DNA from: a virus
Length of the DNA stretch: 64,000 nt
Direction: 5' to 3' (one strand)
Virus record (IMG/VR): IMGVR_UViG_3300037454_000906
Span: 160,001 to 224,000 of that record
Below the pieces are notes generated by a model. The model was not told the origin of the DNA. It did not search any database and saw nothing but the letters and a program-made list of their open reading frames with translations. Within the stretch, counting starts at the first letter, position 1; each line of letters opens with the position of its first letter. Below are positions 20,186 to 55,746 of this stretch, piece by piece. The position numbers were made by a program, and so were the translations under genes.

Positions 20186-20980
20186 CTATGGCCTCTCTGG
20201 CAAGAATGTCGACCAGTCCTCAAAGGTGAACGGGTGCAACGTATCCAGCTTGCGTTCGCCGGGGTTCATGCTATCCGCATCAAGTGTTGATGCATGCAGA
20301 AGGCCATCGTATATCTCCACATTCGTCGTGACTATATGGTTGTCCTTGCTACTGTACGATGCCAGCCCGAACAGTTTCTCGTTCGGGATGTACGCATCAT
20401 ATTCCTTTTCCGGCTTCCACCACCCATTCTCCATGCATTCTTCAACGCGGCGGATATATGTACGTATCCGGTTGGTCGACAGCACATTGTGGATAGGGAA
20501 GGTGCGGTTGTCAGGGCAGTCGCTGCACGTAATCCGTATTCGCACGTTCTTGGCCAGTCCCCTGCGCACCATCTCCTTGGTGGCATACCAGTACATGTTG
20601 GCAAACAGCATTTCCGGCTCGTCCGTAAGCAGATACCGGTCGATTTCCCTCTTCACGTTACCGAAGCTGTCCGTGAACATCGAATCGCAGTGCAGGTCAT
20701 CCAAGCTGAAATTGGCATAGGCGCTGAACAGGTGAAGCGCCTTGTTGGATCGGTAGGGCACCCTACCGATTTCGAACACGTCGCTCACTTCCATCAATCC
20801 AGTTTCCTCACGCAGTTCCCTCATGGCGGCCTCGAGAGGTTCCTCGCCGGCCTCGATGTGCCCTTTCGGAATATCCCACGAATGCCGGTCGGCACAAGCA
20901 TGCCCGGTAGGATGGGATACCAGGAGACGGTCAGATCCTCTCTGGAATATTATGAACCCGGCACTTACTTCCTTGGGCAT
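20186..20980 (-). CDS. Nudix hydrolase with C-terminal extra domain
   Basis: SAGFII...WDIPKGHIEAGEEPLEAAMRELREETGL Nudix box. Confidence 0.9.
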   Translation of the reverse strand: MPKEVSAGFIIFQRGSDRLLVSHPTGHACADRHSWDIPKGHIEAGEEPLEAAMRELREETGLMEVSDVFEIGRVPYRSNKALHLFSAYANFSLDDLHCDSMFTDSFGNVKREIDRYLLTDEPEMLFANMYWYATKEMVRRGLAKNVRIRITCSDCPDNRTFPIHNVLSTNRIRTYIRRVEECMENGWWKPEKEYDAYIPNEKLFGLASYSSKDNHIVTTNVEIYDGLLHASTLDADSMNPGERKLDTLHPFTFEDWSTFLPERP

Positions 20981-21960
20981 CAGATTTCATCTCCCGTGTT
21001 GGAAGTCTCGTTTGGCATAATTATTTCCGGCAACTCATCCTTCTTGAGTAGGTCATTGGGGGCGTGCAGGTTGACGTGGAACTCGGCTATTTCCGACCGT
21101 ATGACGGTAAGGTCCGGGTTTCTCCTGGCTTCGTGAAGAGCCGGGAGCCGTTCGATTTCCTCCGCAGTAAACTTACGCCTGAGCAACTTGCGCTTAAAGT
21201 AAAATCCGACTATCTGGGGAGCAGTGTATTTGGACCAGAACCTGATTCCCTTATCTTCAATCATCTTCAGCTTCTCGTCTGAGTTCTTGTTCAGTAGGGC
21301 CTTGTGGGAGTACAGCGATTGGGCAACTGCAGAGATGGCGTTTCTTGTCGCATCCCTCTCTCGCCATAGCTGGTAATAGTTGACCAGGTTGTCATCGGGA
21401 ATCCCGAAGGCGCGCCCGTCGAATGCAGGGAGCTTGGATAATTTCTTGCCGGTGCTATCCTCATATGACCTGATGAACGAGGCCGTCGCCACAGAAGCGG
21501 CCAGGGAAGCCAGCTTGTGCGCCTTTCGCCCGTAGTCAAGCGATTCCTTGGGGAGCACGATAGTTATCTCGTCCGACTGGGTATACCCGTAAAGTGCAGG
21601 GAAGAACTCGATGAGACTCTTGGTCGCATCGTGCATCGCCTTCTGCATGTTCTCGTCGAACGGCTTCGCCATTTTCTTGGTGAACGTGTGGAATGTGTGG
21701 CCGTCCACACGGATGACCGGGTACATGCCATCCGGGATCACGGTATAGCCGTTGTAATATGGCCAACCAACTCTGATCCGGCAGCAACCCCTTGTGTTCG
21801 CGGGATGCCCGGCGCCGGTAAAATCGCCTTCAATGTCCTTGAAAAAATCGGCGATTGGTACTTTCTGTATCTCCTCACCAGACTTTTTATCGGCAACGAC
21901 CTTCGCTGAACCGTCATTTGTAAAATTAAATTTTCGTTTTATCCATTCAAACATTGACAT
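20980..21960 (-). CDS. Thg1-like tRNA(His) guanylyltransferase / 3'-5' nucleotidyltransferase
   Basis: VIRVDGHTFHTFT...YGYTQSDEITIV...GRKAHKLASLAAS...AFDGRAF...WRERDATRNAI. Confidence 0.9.
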   Translation of the reverse strand: MSMFEWIKRKFNFTNDGSAKVVADKKSGEEIQKVPIADFFKDIEGDFTGAGHPANTRGCCRIRVGWPYYNGYTVIPDGMYPVIRVDGHTFHTFTKKMAKPFDENMQKAMHDATKSLIEFFPALYGYTQSDEITIVLPKESLDYGRKAHKLASLAASVATASFIRSYEDSTGKKLSKLPAFDGRAFGIPDDNLVNYYQLWRERDATRNAISAVAQSLYSHKALLNKNSDEKLKMIEDKGIRFWSKYTAPQIVGFYFKRKLLRRKFTAEEIERLPALHEARRNPDLTVIRSEIAEFHVNLHAPNDLLKKDELPEIIMPNETSNTGDEI

Positions 21961-21963
21961 ATC

Positions 21964-22269
21964 CTATAATCCATGGTATTTCAGCACCTTGCCCAACGCA
22001 TCCTTCAGATCATTGATGACGGCGAGGTTGGCATTTTGGTACGTTTCCCATAACTGCGCTATCTCGAGGTCACAGAGCATTTCGTACACGGGGTTGTTGT
22101 CCGTGCAGTCACCTTTCTCGACTATGCTCCTCATTTCTGAGCATGCGCTTTCGATTGCATCGAGTCCAGAGTTTGCCGAAGTCTCATAATCGGGCATCGC
22201 CGCGCGTATTTCGCCGACGTATCCCTCAATGTCCTGAATGTAGGACTCTATTTCTTCATTTGTTGACAT
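21964..22269 (-). CDS. Hypothetical acidic protein
   Basis: Start MSTNEE, 6 nt after -10 TATATT; -35 TTGCCA (22305-22300). Confidence 0.7.
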   Translation of the reverse strand: MSTNEEIESYIQDIEGYVGEIRAAMPDYETSANSGLDAIESACSEMRSIVEKGDCTDNNPVYEMLCDLEIAQLWETYQNANLAVINDLKDALGKVLKYHGL

Positions 22270-22327
22270 ACACAAAATATAGCTAATTTTTTCAGATTTT
22301 GGCAATTTGCCTTGAAAAATTTCCGAT

Positions 22328-22520
22328 ACGCTCGCCGCCGGATATGAACTACCCACCGGCTAAAGACCGGTGGGTTTCGGTAACCACCGGTGCAACCAGT
22401 TGAATTTCCCGCATCACAGCACCGCTGCTTTTTAGGTCACAAAGACGTTCATCCACAGTTGGGTTCTCCGCAAGGCATAGCGGTCGCAAGACCACGGCTT
22501 CCCCGGTTCGCGGGGTACCT
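22328..22520 (-). ncRNA. Predicted omegaRNA of TnpB 1 (scaffold plus flanking guide ATCCGGCGGCGAGCG...)
   Basis: Established TnpB biology: reRNA overlaps the ORF 3' end and right end; structured tail present; limits approximate. Confidence 0.6.
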
Positions 22521-23620
22521 TCGTTATCTAGTATTCTAAATCCTTCATCAAGTATGTTCTTGGCAGCATTCCAATCTCTATCTACTAGGCTACCGCAGTC
22601 TGGACATATCCACGCCCTTTCGCTAAGTTTCAATGTATGGTATCTATGCCCGCAGTTGTTGCATAGTTGCGAACTGGGGAAGAACCGTCCTACCTTAACG
22701 ACCGTACGGTTATGCCATTGAGCTTTGTACTCTATCATCTTAGTTAGTGTACCGAGTGCCTGATTGGCCAACGCGCCAGCAAGACAGTGGTTCTTCTGCA
22801 TTCCCTTTATGTTAAGGTTCTCCATACAGATTATGTCATAGTCACGAACTAGCCTGTGTGATACTTGATGAAGGAAGTTATTCCTTCTGTTACCCAGTTT
22901 TTCATGGGCTGTGACAAGTTGAATACGGACTTTCTCGTATCGACTGCCGCCTTTCTTCGCCTTTGCGAGTTTCCTCTGCAAATGCCTAATCTTTCGTTCC
23001 GACTTCTGTTCAAAGTGCGGATTCTTAATTACTTCTCCGTTGGACATCACGATGGACGACTTGATACCGAGGTCGATGCCCACACATTCACCGGTATGCA
23101 ACATCTCAGGTTCATCAACATCACAGCATATTGAGCAATAATAGTCGCCTTTCTTGCTTTTCTTGATTGTAACATTGTAAATTTTAACGATGTTTTCGTG
23201 TTCGAATGTCTTACCGAATCGACACTTGACTGCGCCAACTTTCGGCAGTACAATGGAATTGCCAACAATTAGTTTCTTAATATCCTTGTGGCACATAGCA
23301 TTACGGTAACTCTGTTTGTCCTTCTTGGACTTGTATCTCGGATACTTGGATTTGCCGGTAAAGAAGTTCTGGTAGGCTTGGTTCATATCCATATAGGCAT
23401 TAGCCAATCCTTGTGAGTCAGCCTCCTTCAACCATTCCCATTCTTCCTTAAACGACTTCAATTTCGGCTGGAAAGACATCTTGGTCTCTTCGTAGATATA
23501 TGACTTAATTTTAAGGCACTGGTTATACACAAAACGACAGCAACCGAAGGTCTTTGCAAAGAATACCTTCTGCGCCTTGTTCGGATATAGCTTGATTTCG
23601 ATGCCTTTTTTAACTATCAT
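22349..23620 (-). CDS. tnpB: TnpB RNA-guided endonuclease
   Basis: IKLYPN..Q...FGCCRFVYN; RuvC GIDLG / MENL / DRDWNAAKNI intact; CNNCG...CPDCG zinc finger. Confidence 0.95.
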   Translation of the reverse strand: MIVKKGIEIKLYPNKAQKVFFAKTFGCCRFVYNQCLKIKSYIYEETKMSFQPKLKSFKEEWEWLKEADSQGLANAYMDMNQAYQNFFTGKSKYPRYKSKKDKQSYRNAMCHKDIKKLIVGNSIVLPKVGAVKCRFGKTFEHENIVKIYNVTIKKSKKGDYYCSICCDVDEPEMLHTGECVGIDLGIKSSIVMSNGEVIKNPHFEQKSERKIRHLQRKLAKAKKGGSRYEKVRIQLVTAHEKLGNRRNNFLHQVSHRLVRDYDIICMENLNIKGMQKNHCLAGALANQALGTLTKMIEYKAQWHNRTVVKVGRFFPSSQLCNNCGHRYHTLKLSERAWICPDCGSLVDRDWNAAKNILDEGFRILDNEGTPRTGEAVVLRPLCLAENPTVDERLCDLKSSGAVMREIQLVAPVVTETHRSLAGG

Positions 23621-23622
23621 AC

Positions 23623-23723
23623 AAAAATCCTACCGGAACTGGTCCTTCCGGTAGGATACAATGTACCTAAGTACATTTTAAACTCTTCTACGACGGCAAG
23701 GACCAGTTGCCTTCGTATATCAG
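23623..23723 (-). ncRNA. Structured leader RNA with three hairpins; loops of H1 and H3 complementary
   Basis: H1 23717-23689 loop CUGGUCC; H2 23677-23660; H3 23657-23627 (12-bp perfect stem) loop GGACCAG plus U-run; promoter TTGACG-17-TACATA and TATAAACT upstream. Confidence 0.7.
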
Positions 23724-23835
23724 TTTATATATGTAGCAAAATTTCCGAAAATCGTCAAGCGGCTTTCATCTCACCCACTAAAGATGGGTGAGTTTTCTCG
23801 CCGCCACATTATAAACTGCTACCCGAGGTACCCCA

Positions 23836-24309
23836 ATGACCAACGAATATACACAAGAACTGGACAGCATGGGCACACGGAGTGGACTAACTCTGCTGAC
23901 CGAGGCAATCAAGAGCGCATATATCGCCCTGCTCGAATCCGAGCAGGCGCCCGGTGAACCCGCATCCCCCGACAGTACACCCCCGCTCCCCGATGGCGGG
24001 GTGTACGTTAGCCCCGACGGCAGTGAGGTGCTCGGGCTTATCTGGTCCGACAACAGCGACAACATCGATGACGAGGACTGGGACCAGGGGTATAACTGCT
24101 ACACGATCGCCGACCGGTATCGTGTCAAGGAAGGGTTTGACCCTTCCCAGCTCCCGTGCGATCCGGCTGAGCTCGATGGGGCCCATGAACTGGAACTTAC
24201 CGAGAACATGACGCAGTTCCTGTACAAAAGGAATTCGTTGCCATCCGAGGAGGATGCGCTCGACGCGTATTACGCCGCGGGGTGGAAGAAGTTGCCATGT
24301 GGCCAGTAG
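23836..24309 (+). CDS. Putative late/internal head protein with N-terminal propeptide motif
   Basis: Late promoter TATAAACT 23810-23817, SD GAGG; LDSM...LLTEAIKSAYIALLES. Confidence 0.65.
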   Translation: MTNEYTQELDSMGTRSGLTLLTEAIKSAYIALLESEQAPGEPASPDSTPPLPDGGVYVSPDGSEVLGLIWSDNSDNIDDEDWDQGYNCYTIADRYRVKEGFDPSQLPCDPAELDGAHELELTENMTQFLYKRNSLPSEEDALDAYYAAGWKKLPCGQ

Positions 24310-24319
24310 TGGGTGAGCC

Positions 24320-24961
24320 ATGTACGACTATCGCATAGACAAAACCATCGACCAATTGGACCCGGTTCCATCGGAGTCATGGAGTTCGGACCAGGTAGAT
24401 GCATTCTTTGATTCGGCATTGGTGCCTGTAGCGGGAATAACCCCGCAGGGCTCTTACAGGACGTTCAATAATTCGTTTAAGTCGATAATCGAACGTTATA
24501 CGCCGATGTTCACGCCAAAACTTCCCGTGTTTATTGGCAATTCGGGTAGTTCACCGACCTCCCCGACCAACAATACGGCGACTTTTGGAATCACCAAGGT
24601 GTCAAGCGAAGGGGATGCCATTTTCCTCCAGTCCAATGTCTTGAAGGTGAAACCGGGGTGGTATCATGTCGATGCGGTAGCCACAGTAAACTTTTCGGGC
24701 ACCGCGTCGAATACTATTGTTCCGGTAACATTCAACCTTGAACTCGATGGCGCGGAAGTATGCTCCGACGCCATTCAGTTTGACTATTCGTATCCCAGCA
24801 ATTCGGCTACCCTACATCTGCATGGCATTACGGTAAATTCGGGAACCGATGCAGCATCGTTGGTATTTAAAGTTACGGGATTGCTTGACGGGTCCACGGC
24901 GACATTGAATCACGCGGCCCTCTTCCAGGTCAGGCCAATTGACACCGCAGCGGCCCAATAG
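24320..24961 (+). CDS. Putative virion protein with C-terminal beta-sandwich (C1q/BclA-like)
   Basis: VLKVKPGWYHVDAVATVNF beta-rich pattern; co-transcribed late gene. Confidence 0.55.
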   Translation: MYDYRIDKTIDQLDPVPSESWSSDQVDAFFDSALVPVAGITPQGSYRTFNNSFKSIIERYTPMFTPKLPVFIGNSGSSPTSPTNNTATFGITKVSSEGDAIFLQSNVLKVKPGWYHVDAVATVNFSGTASNTIVPVTFNLELDGAEVCSDAIQFDYSYPSNSATLHLHGITVNSGTDAASLVFKVTGLLDGSTATLNHAALFQVRPIDTAAAQ

Positions 24962-25103
24962 TCCTTACATATGAACTACCCACCGGCTAAAGACCGGTGG
25001 GTTTCGGTTCCCACCGTTACCAGTGATGCTTCCTGCTCAAGACAGCTATTGCTGCCAGTATCAACAGGCTTAACCTCTAAGGTTCCCCCAGTCCCTGGGG
25101 TAC
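24955..25103 (-). ncRNA. Predicted omegaRNA of TnpB 2 (guide ATGTAAGGACTATTGG...)
   Basis: Position at right end; structured tail; limits approximate. Confidence 0.55.
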
Positions 25104-26202
25104 TTGAATTGTTAAGACGACGACCTTCAACGAGTATGTTGAGGGCTGAGTTCTCGTCCCTGTCCAGCGGTTCTCCACATACAGGGCAAGTCCACTTGCG
25201 GTCTTCGAGAGTAAGTTCGTCGTTCTTGAAATGACACTTGTGACATAGCTTCGTGGACGGGAAGAACATACTTACCTTCAAGTAGGTCCTTCCATACCAT
25301 GCCGCCTTGTATTCCACCTTGTCCAGGAACGAGCTCCACGCAGCATCCGCAATGGATTTCGCCAGCTTGTGGTTCTTCATGAGGTTCCTGACTTTCAGGT
25401 CCTCGGAGTAGATGCATTGGTTTTCTGCAACTAGCTGCCAGGAGACCTTGTGCTGAAAGTCGTTCCGCTGGTTTTTAATCTTCTCATGCACCAATGCCAC
25501 TCGCAACTGCTGCTTTTTGTAGTTGTTCGAGCCCTTGGTGCGGTGGCTTAATTTCCTCTGTTCCTTCGCAAGGCTTTCTTGCGATTTATTAAAATACTTC
25601 GGATTTTCGATAACACATCCATCGGAATCCACAAGGAAATCTTTTAGTCCTAAATCAAATGCAATGTCGTTGGCCGTATGTGGTAGTGAGTTCGGTTCTT
25701 CCACTTCGCAGCATATCGAACAAAAATACTTTCCTGTCGGAGTCTTCTTTATTGTTATGTTCCAGACTTTAATGATGCCTATATTGTTGAAATCATATCC
25801 CTGACGGAATGTGACTGGACCTGCTTTCGGGATGATTATCTTGTTGCCGACCACCAGTTCTTTGATGTCAGAATGCATCATCGCATTACGATAGCTCTGC
25901 TTATCAGTTTTCTTCTTGTATTTCGGATATCCGGTCCTTCCGGAGAAGAAATTCTGGTAAGCAGTATTCATGTCCATGTAGGCATTTGCCAGTCCTTGAG
26001 AATCGGCTTCCTTCAACCACGGCCACTCCTCCTTGAACGAGCGGAGATTTGGTTTGAAGTTCATGTATGTCTCTTCGTATATACAGGACTTCATCCATAG
26101 GCAGTGGTTGTACACAAAACGACAGCACCCGAACGTCTTGTTGAAAAACGTCCGCTGTTCTTGATTAGGATATAGTCGTATCTCAAATGCCTTCTTTATC
26201 AT
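24976..26202 (-). CDS. tnpB: TnpB RNA-guided endonuclease
   Basis: EIRLYPNQEQ...FGCCRFVYN; RuvC AFDLG / SEDL / DRDENSALNI; CHKC...CPVC. Confidence 0.95.
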   Translation of the reverse strand: MIKKAFEIRLYPNQEQRTFFNKTFGCCRFVYNHCLWMKSCIYEETYMNFKPNLRSFKEEWPWLKEADSQGLANAYMDMNTAYQNFFSGRTGYPKYKKKTDKQSYRNAMMHSDIKELVVGNKIIIPKAGPVTFRQGYDFNNIGIIKVWNITIKKTPTGKYFCSICCEVEEPNSLPHTANDIAFDLGLKDFLVDSDGCVIENPKYFNKSQESLAKEQRKLSHRTKGSNNYKKQQLRVALVHEKIKNQRNDFQHKVSWQLVAENQCIYSEDLKVRNLMKNHKLAKSIADAAWSSFLDKVEYKAAWYGRTYLKVSMFFPSTKLCHKCHFKNDELTLEDRKWTCPVCGEPLDRDENSALNILVEGRRLNNSSTPGTGGTLEVKPVDTGSNSCLEQEASLVTVGTETHRSLAGG

Positions 26203-26215
26203 ACTATTATACAGT

Positions 26216-26368
26216 CTATAACCACAATAGTAAACACACTAAAATAATAGGTGCGCTAATTATTGGTATCATATACCAATGTAATTTCATATCATCTTGA
26301 TTAATGGCATGGCTATGTGAGTTTTGACCGAATATGAATCCTATCATAAATGCTATGTAATTATCCAT
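26216..26368 (-). CDS. Unannotated 50-aa hydrophobic passenger peptide inside IS
   Basis: Manual read MDNYIAFMIGFIFGQNSHSHAINQDDMKLHWYMIPIISAPIILVCLLLWL*; stop 13 nt before tnpB ATG; open frame across very AT-rich DNA. Confidence 0.55.
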   Translation of the reverse strand: MDNYIAFMIGFIFGQNSHSHAINQDDMKLHWYMIPIISAPIILVCLLLWL

Positions 26369-26384
26369 ATATGATGCCTATATA

Positions 26385-26488
26385 CAAAATGACCCCGATG
26401 CGACAATACTGCGGAACCTTGTACGCACCGGAGCCGAAATTGCTATCTTTGTATAGATGATGGAAGGTTCCGCCAGTCCTCATCTACT
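26385..26488 (-). ncRNA. Structured leader RNA 2 with complementary H1/H3 loops
   Basis: H1 26486-26454 loop CUGGCGGAACCU; H3 26433-26393 loop GGUUCCGCAGUA; promoter TTGCAT(26523-26518)-17-TATAAA(26500-26495). Confidence 0.6.
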
Positions 26489-26517
26489 CATAAGTTTATA
26501 GCATCAACATAGAAATT

Positions 26518-26928
26518 ATGCAATACAAATCCAAGAACCATACCAAATTTTTGTTGCAATATCATATCATTTTCGTTTCAAAGTACCGTAGAGGCATATT
26601 TTCCAATGAAATGGTACGGGAACGAACCAAACAAGTGATGTTGGACATTGCCGAAAGGTATGATTTTAGCATCCAAACACAGGAAATCGACCCGAACAAA
26701 CCTGACCACTGGCATGGATTGATATTGAGTACACCAAATCTGTCTCCATCACAGATAGTCCGTGTACTCAAACAGGAGTCCAACCACAGGTTATGGTTAG
26801 AATTTGAGCAATATCTTCGGTACTTTTATTGGCATGACAATTTGCTATGGACTAGGGGATATTTCGTAGCGTCAATCGGAAATGCATCGGCAGATACCAT
26901 TCAAGCCTATATTGATGCGCAAGGTTAA
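26518..26928 (+). CDS. tnpA: IS200-like Y1 (HUH) transposase
   Basis: LQYHIIFVSKYRR, DHWH (HUH), LWTRGYFVASIG, IQAYIDAQ (catalytic Tyr). Confidence 0.95.
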   Translation: MQYKSKNHTKFLLQYHIIFVSKYRRGIFSNEMVRERTKQVMLDIAERYDFSIQTQEIDPNKPDHWHGLILSTPNLSPSQIVRVLKQESNHRLWLEFEQYLRYFYWHDNLLWTRGYFVASIGNASADTIQAYIDAQG

Positions 26929-26990
26929 TCCCCAGGCCTCTCATCTCACCCACTAAAGATGAGTGCGTTTTCTCGGCCCATATTATAACG

Positions 26991-27015
26991 AAAAACGGCG
27001 ATTTCTCGCCGTTTT
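26991..27015. terminator. Bidirectional intrinsic terminator
   Basis: AAAACGGCG-6-CGCCGTTTT between convergent units. Confidence 0.8.
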
Positions 27016-27016
27016 G

Positions 27017-30000
27017 CTACCATATGAACTCGACACGCAGCCAGTAATCATTAAATGAACCGGCTGAACCATGCACATTATCAGAAATTTCGTACCGAAT
27101 ATACCGTTCGCCGCGCTCAATGATACGGAAGAAATCTGGATCATCAGAGTATTTTTCTTCCTGGGGTTCACCACCATAAATAGTGATGATACTCAAATAC
27201 GGCATGCCATCCACCAGTTTAAGTCCAGTAACTTCAACCGGTTCGGGTATCGGCGTATCTCGCCCCATTTCATGGAATAGTTCAATTTTCTCCCCGTTTT
27301 TTTGGACTGCGTATATGCTACTTGGTGAGTCAACATCCTTATTTTCAACCGTAAACTTGAACGCCCGGGGTTCGGGAGACAGGTTCGTTGCGGGTAGCCG
27401 GTAAACCGGGTTCGCGTTTTGGATCTGGTCCTTTCTCGGAAAATCGAACTGACCCCAGAGGACCGCATCGCCCATGGTGCCACCCGCACGATCATGTACC
27501 CATGCGCCATCATGGTAAGCGACGGCGGGCACGTCGGAACCACGCGCCACCGATGTCGCCGGACGCAAGTGCTTGCGCATGGCCCAGAAACTTGCATGGG
27601 CCTTGCTTGCCCAGGCGCTCTCATTCGACTCACTCAATATATTGCCGCCGTTCACGTCATACGGGGCCACGATGCCCAGGCCGCCGGAAGGTATGGGGAG
27701 ATACGGCTTAGCCAACCGCGGGATCGCAACTTCGCTGGTGGGCAGGTCAGTATTGTTTTCCAATTCAACCTTGTCGCTGGCCGGCATGTTCGAAATGAGC
27801 TTCGGTATGATACTCGGGTTGATGTCCATCGGCGGATATTTGTAGTACGGGTGCATCAGGACATCTTGCCAGCCACGGTTTGGTGGGCATATCGATTCCG
27901 TCCATACACGTACGCCATCAATCTTCGCTTCGAGGGCGTTCGCTCCATATAGCGGGGTCAAGTACGACATCGGGGTCTGTATGTAATCGACCGTGTACCA
28001 ACGCCCCGCGCTTGCCGAGAATTTGAACTTCATGTATACGCGAATGTAGCCGCTGGGGCCCGCGAATATACCGGTGCCATTGAATATGCTATACCAATCA
28101 CGGGTCACCTTAACGGGCGGTTCGCTCCAGTTCGTGACCGACGGGATTCCATCATCGTCACGCATCGACGCGTAGTGGATATTGGAATCGATTCCCGACC
28201 ACTGTGCGCTGGTGGACCTGGATATGAAATTATCCCGAACGATTGCATCGCGAACCGTGGGATCAAGACCACTCAATCCATCGCAGTCATCTTCGCCGCA
28301 GCATTCCGTCTCCGGCCAAATGATTCTAGTGGAATCTATTAACTTGATATGCCGCCATACCGGATCGGTCACGTCCCCTTCCGGATACATCAGCCCGGAT
28401 TGCGAAATGCCGGTGCGGGTGCTATCCCAGAACCTGGTGGGCATGTGTCCGCCGTATGGGGCGACCATCGATCTCAGTAGCTTCGTTAACGCAGTCGATT
28501 TAGGCACGCCATCTATGAATGGCAAATTATACGACACGAAGTATATGTTCAGGATTTTTTCCCATTCGGTGTCGTAGCCCATGATTTTTGCGCGTTGGGT
28601 CACATACAATCCTTCGATGTACCCAAGATACGTAGCCATCGCATCGCCCGAAATCAGCGGCAGCATTTGGGGATTTGTTTTCCCAAGATATTCCAGCAAA
28701 TCCTGATTCAAAGTAGCGCTTCCCGGAGACGGTATTGTATCTACGGAGAATACGTTGGCCGTGGCCGAATAGATATCCTTCCACATCTCGGACTCGGATG
28801 CACCGATCAAATTTGCATATGGCTCGGTGATGTCAAAGTCACCACCAGGTGCCCAATCTTTCAGGCCAGTAATCTGAAGCTCGGCAACACGGCACGCGTC
28901 CCGGAACAGCTCATGCCGAACTGCATCAGAATCGCTTTCAATGCGGGCATTTATTACACTACGGTACCCGAACATTTCCTTAGGCCATGCGGCCAGCTTG
29001 TAATCACACGGGATCGGTGTTGCGGACGCGCTTGTCCAATATTCGCCATTCCCGTAGATGTTTTCCGAATACCGTGCGCCCACTTCGCCATCTACAAACG
29101 GATCGGCGCCTACGATGGAATTTCCGTCGGCGTATTGGTCTTGCCCCGACGCGCGGATATAGTCAGGCAAATGCCTTGCCTTGATTTGCCATGCTGCGCC
29201 CGCCAACTTGTTATTGATTACCTCATCGGTAGGTTCGCCACTCGCCCTGGTCCACCCGCTTAGGAAGATGTCATGGAGGGAGCCAGGATATTCCGGGTTG
29301 GTGCCCATTCGAGAACTTCTCGAGATCCCCGGTATCTTCTTGTACTCTCTGGCCAGACGCATCTTGCGGAAATCACTTGCCAGCATTTCCACCGCTTTCC
29401 TGGCCTGGCGCACCGGATTACTTGCCGCGTCACGGTAGCTTCCGCTGCCATCGGGAATCCGGATGCGCAGCTGGGAACCGACCAGGGACTTCTCCGCGCC
29501 GGAATTTTTCCGGGCATACACGAGCGGCATCGTATCGGCGGTAAATCCGTAGCCGTTCTGCCCGCCGCCCACGTCGCCATACCCGAAGAACCCGACCGTA
29601 TCGTTGAAGTCGATTATCTTCTTGTTCTCATGCCATATCATCGAGGATACGGAATGTTCCCCGAGGTCCCACTCGTCCGTCATCAGACGTTCCAGGTGGC
29701 GCATCTTGTGCCTGCCGACAATCGCCCACGGGAACGTATTCGTGGTAGTCGGGTAGACCGTGGCCACTACACGGCGACCGTCATCCACCAACGCCATGCG
29801 GCCAGTGTCGGAAAACGTTGGGGAAAGAATCTTGTTGTATCGACCGATTCCATTGCCTTCGCCCATGTCACTGGACCCAAGCGTGGTCTCGTTGCGGGTG
29901 TGGAGGCCCATCAAAGTCGACGTGCCCGTACCATAGAGCCGATTTGTTTCGCAGTCATCATTCGGATCAAGGTAAGCGACGCCGCAGATACGCATGCACC

Positions 30001-55604: not shown

Positions 55605-55746
55605 TTCGAACCTCTTTGATTACGGTTGCAGTTTATATCCGGCGGGGCTACCTGAAACCCCGCCAGTCGTTCTCATCGAACAGGCTCTTGCCAGTGAAGA
55701 ACCCGATTACGAGGAACAAAACGGTAGCCCCGAACGAATACATGTC

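Follow-up and report, generated by a model that had tools for sequence, protein, structure and literature searches.

A structured 5′ leader RNA with covarying, mutually complementary hairpin loops precedes tnpB in IS200/IS605 elements of a large phage

The stretch of DNA considered here (hereinafter the window) comprises 64,000 nucleotides, namely bases 160001-224000 of the 253-kb IMG/VR phage record IMGVR_UViG_3300037454_000906, and carries two insertion sequence (IS) elements of the IS200/IS605 type on its minus strand. In each of them a structured leader RNA lies upstream of the gene for TnpB, from which Cas12 descends and which is in wide use as a compact genome editor. Element 1 (22344..23810, minus strand, 1467 bp) runs from a left end starting with AATGTGG to a right end closing with GTAGTTCAT and codes for TnpB alone, a protein of 423 aa (22349..23620, minus strand) with the Pfam domains HTH_OrfB_IS605, OrfB_IS605 and the Cas12f1-like TNB. 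Element 2 (24971..26984, minus strand, 2014 bp) is of the IS605 type with divergent tnpA and tnpB genes: its TnpB (24976..26202, minus strand) has 408 aa and is 51% identical to that of element 1, while its tnpA (26518..26928, plus strand) encodes a Y1 transposase of 136 aa (Pfam Y1_Tnp, E=6e-32). The boundaries of element 1 rest on the homology of both its ends to those of element 2: the left ends show 88% identity across ~52 nt and the right ends are identical for the final ~45 nt, up to GUAGUUCAU. Each left end has a subterminal hairpin (23770..23792 and 26945..26967, both minus strand) with the same loop, UCUUUAG, as the right-end hairpin. Leader 1 lies inside element 1 between the left-end hairpin and tnpB, whereas leader 2 occupies the tnpA-tnpB intergenic region of element 2, with the divergent tnpA beginning on the opposite strand 31 nt from its first hairpin.

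Leader 1 spans ~100 nt up to the tnpB start codon (23621..23721, minus strand) and consists of three hairpins, H1, H2 and H3, with a U-run behind them. H1 (23689..23717, minus strand) presents the loop CUGGUCC at 23700-23706; H2 (23660..23677, minus strand) is a 7-bp hairpin; and H3 (23627..23657, minus strand) combines a 12-bp stem with the loop GGACCAG at 23639-23645. It is followed by UUUU at 23623-23626 and by the tnpB AUG at 23620-23618, such that the distance from the 3′ arm of H3 to the AUG is 6 nt, or 8 nt if the 10-bp G+C-rich core alone is counted. With its 12-bp stem, 7-nt loop and UUUU, this H3 conforms to the pattern of an intrinsic terminator. The loops of H1 and H3 are exact complements and, with AA/UU closing both stems, the complementary stretch comes to 11 nt. 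The fold is considerably more stable than expected (z-score -4.5), with none of 200 shuffled sequences being equally stable.

Leader 2 (26380..26492, minus strand) is composed of H1, a linker, H3 and a U-run (26380-26390). Its H1 (26453..26487, minus strand) bears the loop CUGGCGGAACCU and its H3 (26391..26435, minus strand) the loop GGUUCCGCAGUA; the cores of these loops, GCGGAACC (26466..26473, minus strand) and GGUUCCGC (26411..26418, minus strand), pair over 8 bp, or over 13 bp with one bulged G. The fold again departs from shuffled sequences (z-score -3.2). A preliminary description of the window had pointed to an H1-(linker/H2)-H3-U-run layout common to both elements, with loop pairings of precisely these lengths, and both the sequence and the computed folds bear this out, with hairpins, loops and motifs falling at the places it gave. 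It had further regarded the two leaders as unrelated in sequence apart from a shared terminus. Indeed, MAFFT produces no real alignment between them and a covariance model built on leader 1 yields no match on leader 2, while both leaders terminate in UUUUGUAU. Likewise sustained is its view that these are not omegaRNAs, as the leaders lie 5′ of the AUG, and the conserved right-end hairpin with the guide junction is found at the 3′ end of each element (22344-22390 and 24971-25015).

The strongest evidence for the leader as an RNA comes from its relatives, which we gathered from viral contigs, genomes, metagenomes and a protein collection using the TnpB proteins as queries (L-numbers below label the relative loci compared). 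About 100 TnpB clusters were listed at 45-95% identity, 6 of which were fetched for the comparison of leaders. The set closest to element 1 comprises 13 distinct leaders (the element 1/L084 type), including two copies from a bin assigned to Paludibacteraceae. In every one of these sequences all seven pairs of the kissing helix between the H1 and H3 loops are Watson-Crick; three of the pairs are changed on both sides, with no one-sided changes and no mismatches. Six loop pairs occur (CUGGUCC/GGACCAG, CUGGUAC/GUACCAG, CUGGACC/GGUCCAG, CUGGCAC/GUGCCAG, CUCGCAC/GUGCGAG and CUAGCCC/GGGCUAG), which when placed on the TnpB tree require about eight independent double substitutions. The stems of H1, H2 and H3 covary too, with five of the seven H2 pairs changing on both sides. 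The whole structure is 93% paired, as compared to 31-41% when the partners are shifted by 1-3 columns, and its covariation score was reached by no shuffle. The resulting covariance model recovers leader 1 with E=2e-32, and all its matches in ~480 kb of related loci lie immediately upstream of tnpB. Further sampling of viral contigs by the H3 pattern added a single new copy with an already known loop variant. Thus, the loop-loop pairing is under selection and the leader is a real, selected RNA element, in keeping with the proposal in the preliminary description that selection acts on the structure, for which it had called for a covariation analysis of this kind.

The folding strand can be read from the same helices. 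They contain 29 G-U pairs as compared to nine A-C pairs, and this excess identifies the tnpB-sense strand as the one that folds. The model also scores the antisense strand at 23621-23727 (plus strand; 33.5 bits, E=2e-4); given that H1 and H3 are near mirror images of each other, the strand call should rest on the G-U pairs.

Beyond this set, families with TnpBs 45-50% identical show the same plan, i.e., a TATAAACT-like motif, H1, a linker, H3, a U-rich run and the AUG, with unrelated loops that are complementary over 9-13 nt. The loop pairs are UUGGCGUUC/GAACGCCAA in L014, ACUGGCAUUC/GAAUGCCAGU in L161, UUCGCCUUC/GAAGGCGAA in L012, and a 13-nt complement in L162. The element 2 group likewise keeps the design with loops of its own, GCGGAACC/GGUUCCGC. 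It consists of four sequences (TnpB 72-89% identical) with compensatory changes in the stems and invariant loop cores. A third leader in the same phage (G000 82663-82795, plus strand, where G000 denotes coordinates in the whole phage genome) has the loops GUCGUGUUC/GAACACGAC and a fold z-score of -4.45, and directly precedes a gene for a TnpB-like protein of 578 aa. It was located by generic scans of the genome for kissing hairpins, which served solely for this purpose: they returned 30 matches per strand as compared to ~19 in shuffled sequences, and a stricter filter dropped true cases.

The phage codes for eight TnpB-family genes of at least four types (PF07282, all above the cut-off; G000:C1 18.6, 28.7, 84.2, 109.1, 128.6, 145.6, 182.6 and 185.2 kb), three of which have the leader, the other five having short leaders without this design. 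It is likewise absent at L160, whose TnpB is 57% identical, and in more distant TnpBs (46% identity or less) placed after tnpA in Firmicutes-style operons. Hence, the leader is characteristic of a clade; TnpBs in general do not require it. Within this clade it moves with its element, as the relatives occupy different flanks. Their neighbors are phage genes, such as those for DNA polymerase B, RNA ligase, a T4 gp13-like protein and a tail-tube protein. Two leader-bearing tnpB copies, L084 and L085 (JAKSLB010000007.1 and JAKSLB010000025.1), lie on contigs binned with a Paludibacteraceae metagenome-assembled genome. The seven open reading frames (ORFs) adjoining them match no Pfam family, for which reason these contigs are probably phage DNA too; the binning itself hints at a host within Bacteroidota.

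A second constant is the promoter-like motif TATAAACT, found 4 nt before H1 in leader 1 (23722..23729, minus strand) and 5 nt before H1 in leader 2 (26493..26500, minus strand). It occurs 10 times in the window as compared to an expectation of 0.8, and for 21 of its 26 genome-wide copies an ORF encoding 60 aa or more begins within the next 40 nt, often after just 6-12 nt. The five exceptions include all three kissing leaders, while the other two sites with long leaders (G000 131401 and 140070) have no kissing leader. This placement suggests that TATAAACT is a -10-only promoter resembling the late promoters of T4, typically giving rise to very short leaders. In every leader family H1 is preceded at 4-10 nt by TATAAACT, TATAAGCT, TATAAACC or TATAATCT. 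The late-promoter motif that the preliminary description had placed before H1 is therefore conserved as well as enriched. Its sigma70-like promoters fared less well: the hexamers with 17-nt spacers are present at both leaders (TTGACG-17-TACATA at 23730..23758, minus strand, for leader 1), but a consensus scan did not list them, and unlike TATAAACT they are not conserved across families, those of leader 1 being kept in close relatives only.

What follows the leader is more variable. In the element 1 type the tnpB AUG comes 8-14 nt past H3. The first ORF in element 2, L097 and L098 is a conserved hydrophobic ORF of 50 aa, which in element 2 stands between the leader and tnpB (26216..26368, minus strand, from the ORF list); L095 and L096 have an unrelated ORF of ~90 aa in this slot. 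As the slot after H3 may thus be taken by tnpB, the 50-aa ORF or another ORF, the leader serves the first ORF, whichever it is. A U-rich run after H3 is present in every family, though the rest of the spacer before the AUG varies. The hairpins, the complementarity and covariation of their loops, the strand, the position within the element and the association with TATAAACT are all directly observed. The 50-aa protein, conserved in L097 and L098, has two hydrophobic segments and lacks a match in Pfam; a role as cargo or as a small membrane toxin is conceivable.

Several observations concern the elements themselves. Both TnpB proteins finish with TETHRSLAGG, which is coded by the right-end hairpin CCCACCGG-UCUUUAG-CCGGUGGG (22349-22390 and 24976-25015, minus strand); the omegaRNA or the transposon end probably imposes this tail. 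The identity of the two elements over their last ~45 nt stands next to proteins that are only 51% identical. The H3 stem of element 1 (CCUACCGG/CCGGUAGG, 23627-23657) is one base pair off the right-end hairpin stem (CCCACCGG/CCGGUGGG, 22352-22374), and the H3 loops of families L014, L161 and L164 finish with UUAG or UAAG, resembling the end-hairpin loop; this likeness may be a trace of the origin of the leader. We considered H3 as a TnpA-binding end and rejected the idea, the H3 of element 1 lacking the UCUUUAG loop common to the left- and right-end hairpins.

Element 1 is inserted within a late-type promoter: its flanks, CCGCCGGAT and ATAAACTGC on the plus strand (22335-22350 and 23805-23820), restore an intact promoter sequence when joined, and are then identical over 18 nt to an intact site at 55645-55628 (minus strand). 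In all relatives the left flank reads (A)GTTTAT and so matches a part of TATAAACT on the opposite strand. Thus, the promoter motif of the phage itself seems to be the target of this IS clade, with a transposon-associated motif of roughly TTTAT. For the adjoining gene, TATAAACT is restored by the element's first base. The predicted guide of element 1 (flank starting with ATCCGGCGGCGAG, 22325-22343) has its first 9 nt after the TTTAT motif in common with the promoter site at 55628-55645, a possible partial off-target in its own genome. Directly downstream of element 1 lies a Thg1-like gene of the tRNA-His guanylyltransferase family (20980-21960, minus strand; Pfam E=1.5e-31).

With somewhat better than even confidence, we propose that the leader is a conserved structured 5′ leader RNA of the tnpB unit that acts in cis as a gate, keeping the nuclease low or conditional. 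Transcription would start a few nt after the phage-type TATAAACT, such that the RNA opens with H1. H2 (or the linker) and then H3 would form next, whereupon the apical loops of H1 and H3 could join through 7-13 bp to form a kiss or pseudoknot within the same molecule. This kiss would lock the leader into a compact fold with H3 against the initiation region. With H3 ending 8-14 nt short of the first start codon and a U-rich run behind it, ribosomes should have difficulty reaching the AUG on the locked leader. The locked fold should also depress initiation given that the phage mostly uses very short leaders and that these leaders have no consistent Shine-Dalgarno sequence. In the element 1 type H3 may additionally end a part of the transcripts in the manner of an intrinsic terminator. 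It is improbable that termination is what has been conserved, as the H3 loops of element 2, L014, L161 and L164 measure 12-17 nt and the U-runs there are weaker, whereas such terminators are defined by a G+C-rich stem, a loop of 3-8 nt and a U-tract immediately behind the stem. The net effect would be that the RNA-guided nuclease, or the first cargo ORF, stays low or conditional despite a late-type promoter. From the layout we infer the start of transcription, the effects on termination and translation and the direction of the regulation.

Some points weigh against this proposal. The five other TnpB genes of the phage and that of L160 manage without a leader, showing that TnpB as such does not need one. 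Several families combine an H3 loop of 13-17 nt with a weak U-run (UUUCU), so that canonical termination is not conserved. The loops of the element 2 group do not vary, and the kiss of element 2 itself accordingly rests on analogy with the other families. Lastly, the U-run could function as an unstructured landing site for ribosomes, in which case the leader would aid translation. Also examined and set aside were an outer helix using the promoter region (P0, UAAACU/AGUUUA) and a closing helix joining that region to the AUG, an idea for how read-through transcripts might be blocked; the sequences are AT-rich and show no covariation. A superficial likeness of leader 1 to the hammerhead ribozyme (CUGAUA...GAAG around H1) was dismissed, as were other ribozymes, the core being unmatched, the motif absent in L084 and L014, and Rfam returning nothing.

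Loop complementarity that runs on into the apical stems in several families would also suit a bistable switch, a reading we hold to be unlikely. Here the kiss would nucleate strand exchange into a long-range duplex between the tips of H1 and H3, dismantling H3 and freeing the U-run and AUG (ON), with the two-hairpin form being the OFF state and the ratio of the two set by a phage or host factor or by co-transcriptional kinetics. In element 1 the 11 complementary nt are joined by flanking GG/CC beyond a bulge, and the 13-nt complement of L162 takes in the 3′ arm of H1 and the 5′ arm of H3. RNAfold favors the long-range helix in L084 and L085, and with the loops left free the hairpin and nested long-range states fall within ~3 kcal/mol of each other in six of 16 leaders (element 1, L004, L012, L014, L158 and L164). 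Elsewhere, however, the gap is large and inconsistent (-37 versus -29 for element 2, -36.5 versus -21.6 for L098, and reversed in L162). Moreover, these energies omit the kiss, which would favor the hairpin state, the hairpins are backed by stem covariation, and we know of no candidate ligand or factor for such a switch. A role at the level of DNA strikes us as highly improbable, be it as a top-strand single-stranded structure in TnpA-mediated excision and integration or as an inverted-repeat protein site, with template switching preserving the complementarity. IS200/IS605 elements do transpose via single-stranded DNA, the tips of H1 and H3 are inverted copies of each other, the H3 stem CCUACCGG of element 1 resembles the right-end stem CCCACCGG, and template switching would account for the missing half-compensated intermediates. 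Yet the hairpins of the TnpA type, which share the loop UCUUUAG, are distinct structures at other positions, many G-U (G-T) pairs are tolerated, and the leader is retained in tnpB-only copies. Free change of the loops is incompatible with a protein site, while the fixed position between promoter motif and start codon, together with the U-run, suits an RNA.

The promoter-like motif at a fixed distance and the terminator-like H3 could alternatively delimit a stand-alone small RNA gene of ~95 nt, from promoter to H3 and U-run, which acts in trans and leaves tnpB to be expressed by read-through only. We give this little credence. The loops would then pair with the leaders of sister transcripts, in sense-sense dimers that sense copy number, or with other targets. 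The loop pairs of the phage's three leaders are mutually non-complementary, and the loop differs between L084 and L085 in one metagenome bin, both of which speak in its favor. There is also a precedent, in that the IS200 5′ untranslated region (UTR) is reported to be processed into a trans-acting small RNA (PMC5435999). On the other hand, in the ~480 kb of related loci the covariance model finds the leader only directly upstream of tnpB, and a fixed host or phage target is argued against by the lack of conservation of the loop sequences. The loop 7-mers occur at no other place in the elements, making the omegaRNA or tnpB an unlikely third pairing partner. Furthermore, the loops are substituted at about the rate of four-fold degenerate sites, with 0-3 of the seven positions changed, in line with a four-fold-site divergence of 0.12-0.58. 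Diversifying selection toward new specificities is accordingly not supported. In an extension that we regard as improbable, the loop pair would be an address code, whereby a terminated leader would attach in trans, through two sense-sense kisses, to leaders of its own element type that are still being transcribed. If true, each TnpB element would sense its own copy number or expression apart from the other TnpB elements of the phage. This would amount to an antisense-like multicopy inhibition without an antisense gene, in a phage that has eight TnpB genes and, in its three leaders, loops orthogonal to one another.

Turning back to the leader as a gate acting in cis, neither leader is catalogued, as the preliminary description had surmised. 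Rfam 15, including its IS605-orfB-I/II, HEARO and RAGATH motifs and ribozymes, gave no match to either of them at E<=1 in the region 21500-27500, nor any on the leaders of L164, L014, L162, L084 and L161; and full-text literature searches on TnpB/IS605 turned up no account of a leader of this kind. In a related tnpB, a region toward the 3′ end (L162:2356-2424) weakly matches Rfam RAGATH-18 (29.8 bits, E=0.049, under the gathering score), which may reflect the omegaRNA. The TnpB omegaRNA (reRNA) is a structured RNA of the same element, but it overlaps the 3′ end of tnpB and stops with a guide at the right-end boundary, whereas the leader is 5′ and guide-free. To our knowledge, almost nothing is known of the control of TnpB's own expression, the layers described being the omegaRNA and self-processing of the mRNA only. 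A dedicated leader with a covarying contact across a clade points to a control layer for phage-borne tnpB, and also offers a compact modular RNA part whose loop pairs are freely reprogrammable.

Among RNAs with pairing loops, RNA I and RNA II of ColE1 form kissing complexes with fully paired 7-nt loops between sense and antisense molecules. They share with the tnpB leader two hairpins with exactly complementary 7-nt loops whose sequence is free if the partner follows, but involve two molecules, whereas in the tnpB leader both loops are on one RNA, 60 nt apart. The repZ (repA) pseudoknot of IncI-alpha/IncB plasmids requires translation of a leader peptide and the antisense Inc RNA, its distal partner being single-stranded near the ribosome-binding site. 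Like the tnpB leader, it brings a hairpin loop into contact with a remote part of the same leader by long-range base pairing, which there controls translation of the downstream gene. The parallel with this Rep pseudoknot drawn in the preliminary description nevertheless reduces to an analogy, as the tnpB leader has no internal ORF for a leader peptide, no known antisense partner and no such single-stranded distal segment. Within the same IS superfamily, the IS200 leader reportedly (Beuzon et al., in 1999) keeps expression low by occluding the start region and by means of a hairpin resembling a terminator. Like ours, it lies just inside the left end. The 5′UTR of IS200 tnpA is described as highly structured (PMC5435999, PMC12594629). 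This leader differs in preceding tnpA rather than tnpB or a cargo ORF, in having no loop-loop pairing and in being paired with a cis antisense RNA (art200), and it has no sequence or Rfam relation to the tnpB leader.

The closer published analogue, as compared to the IncI/IncB pseudoknot, appears to be the control of homing-endonuclease genes in the T4 family. In these genes (I-TevI, I-TevII, I-TevIII, segB and Aeh1 mobE) translation is restricted by structures in the leader RNA, in combination with late promoters (PMC2988022). Both cases involve a selfish nuclease gene of a large lytic phage with a late-type promoter upstream and a stable hairpin by the translation start. In T4 a single hairpin hides the Shine-Dalgarno sequence and the late promoter lies within that hairpin, so that late transcripts escape (PMC2988022), whereas TATAAACT stands 4-10 nt upstream of H1 and thus outside the H1-H3 structure. 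The gene, moreover, is tnpB of an IS200/IS605 element, and its leader comprises two or three hairpins, linked by a loop-loop contact that covaries: all seven pairs are kept through three double changes, and five further families have different complementary loops. If our reading holds, the rule that leader RNAs and late promoters restrain selfish nucleases in large lytic phages would reach RNA-guided nucleases. We thus see the leader as known in kind, namely a leader RNA that would restrain a selfish nuclease, a function suggested by its sequence and position, and as new in architecture, with a covarying intramolecular kiss placed before tnpB.

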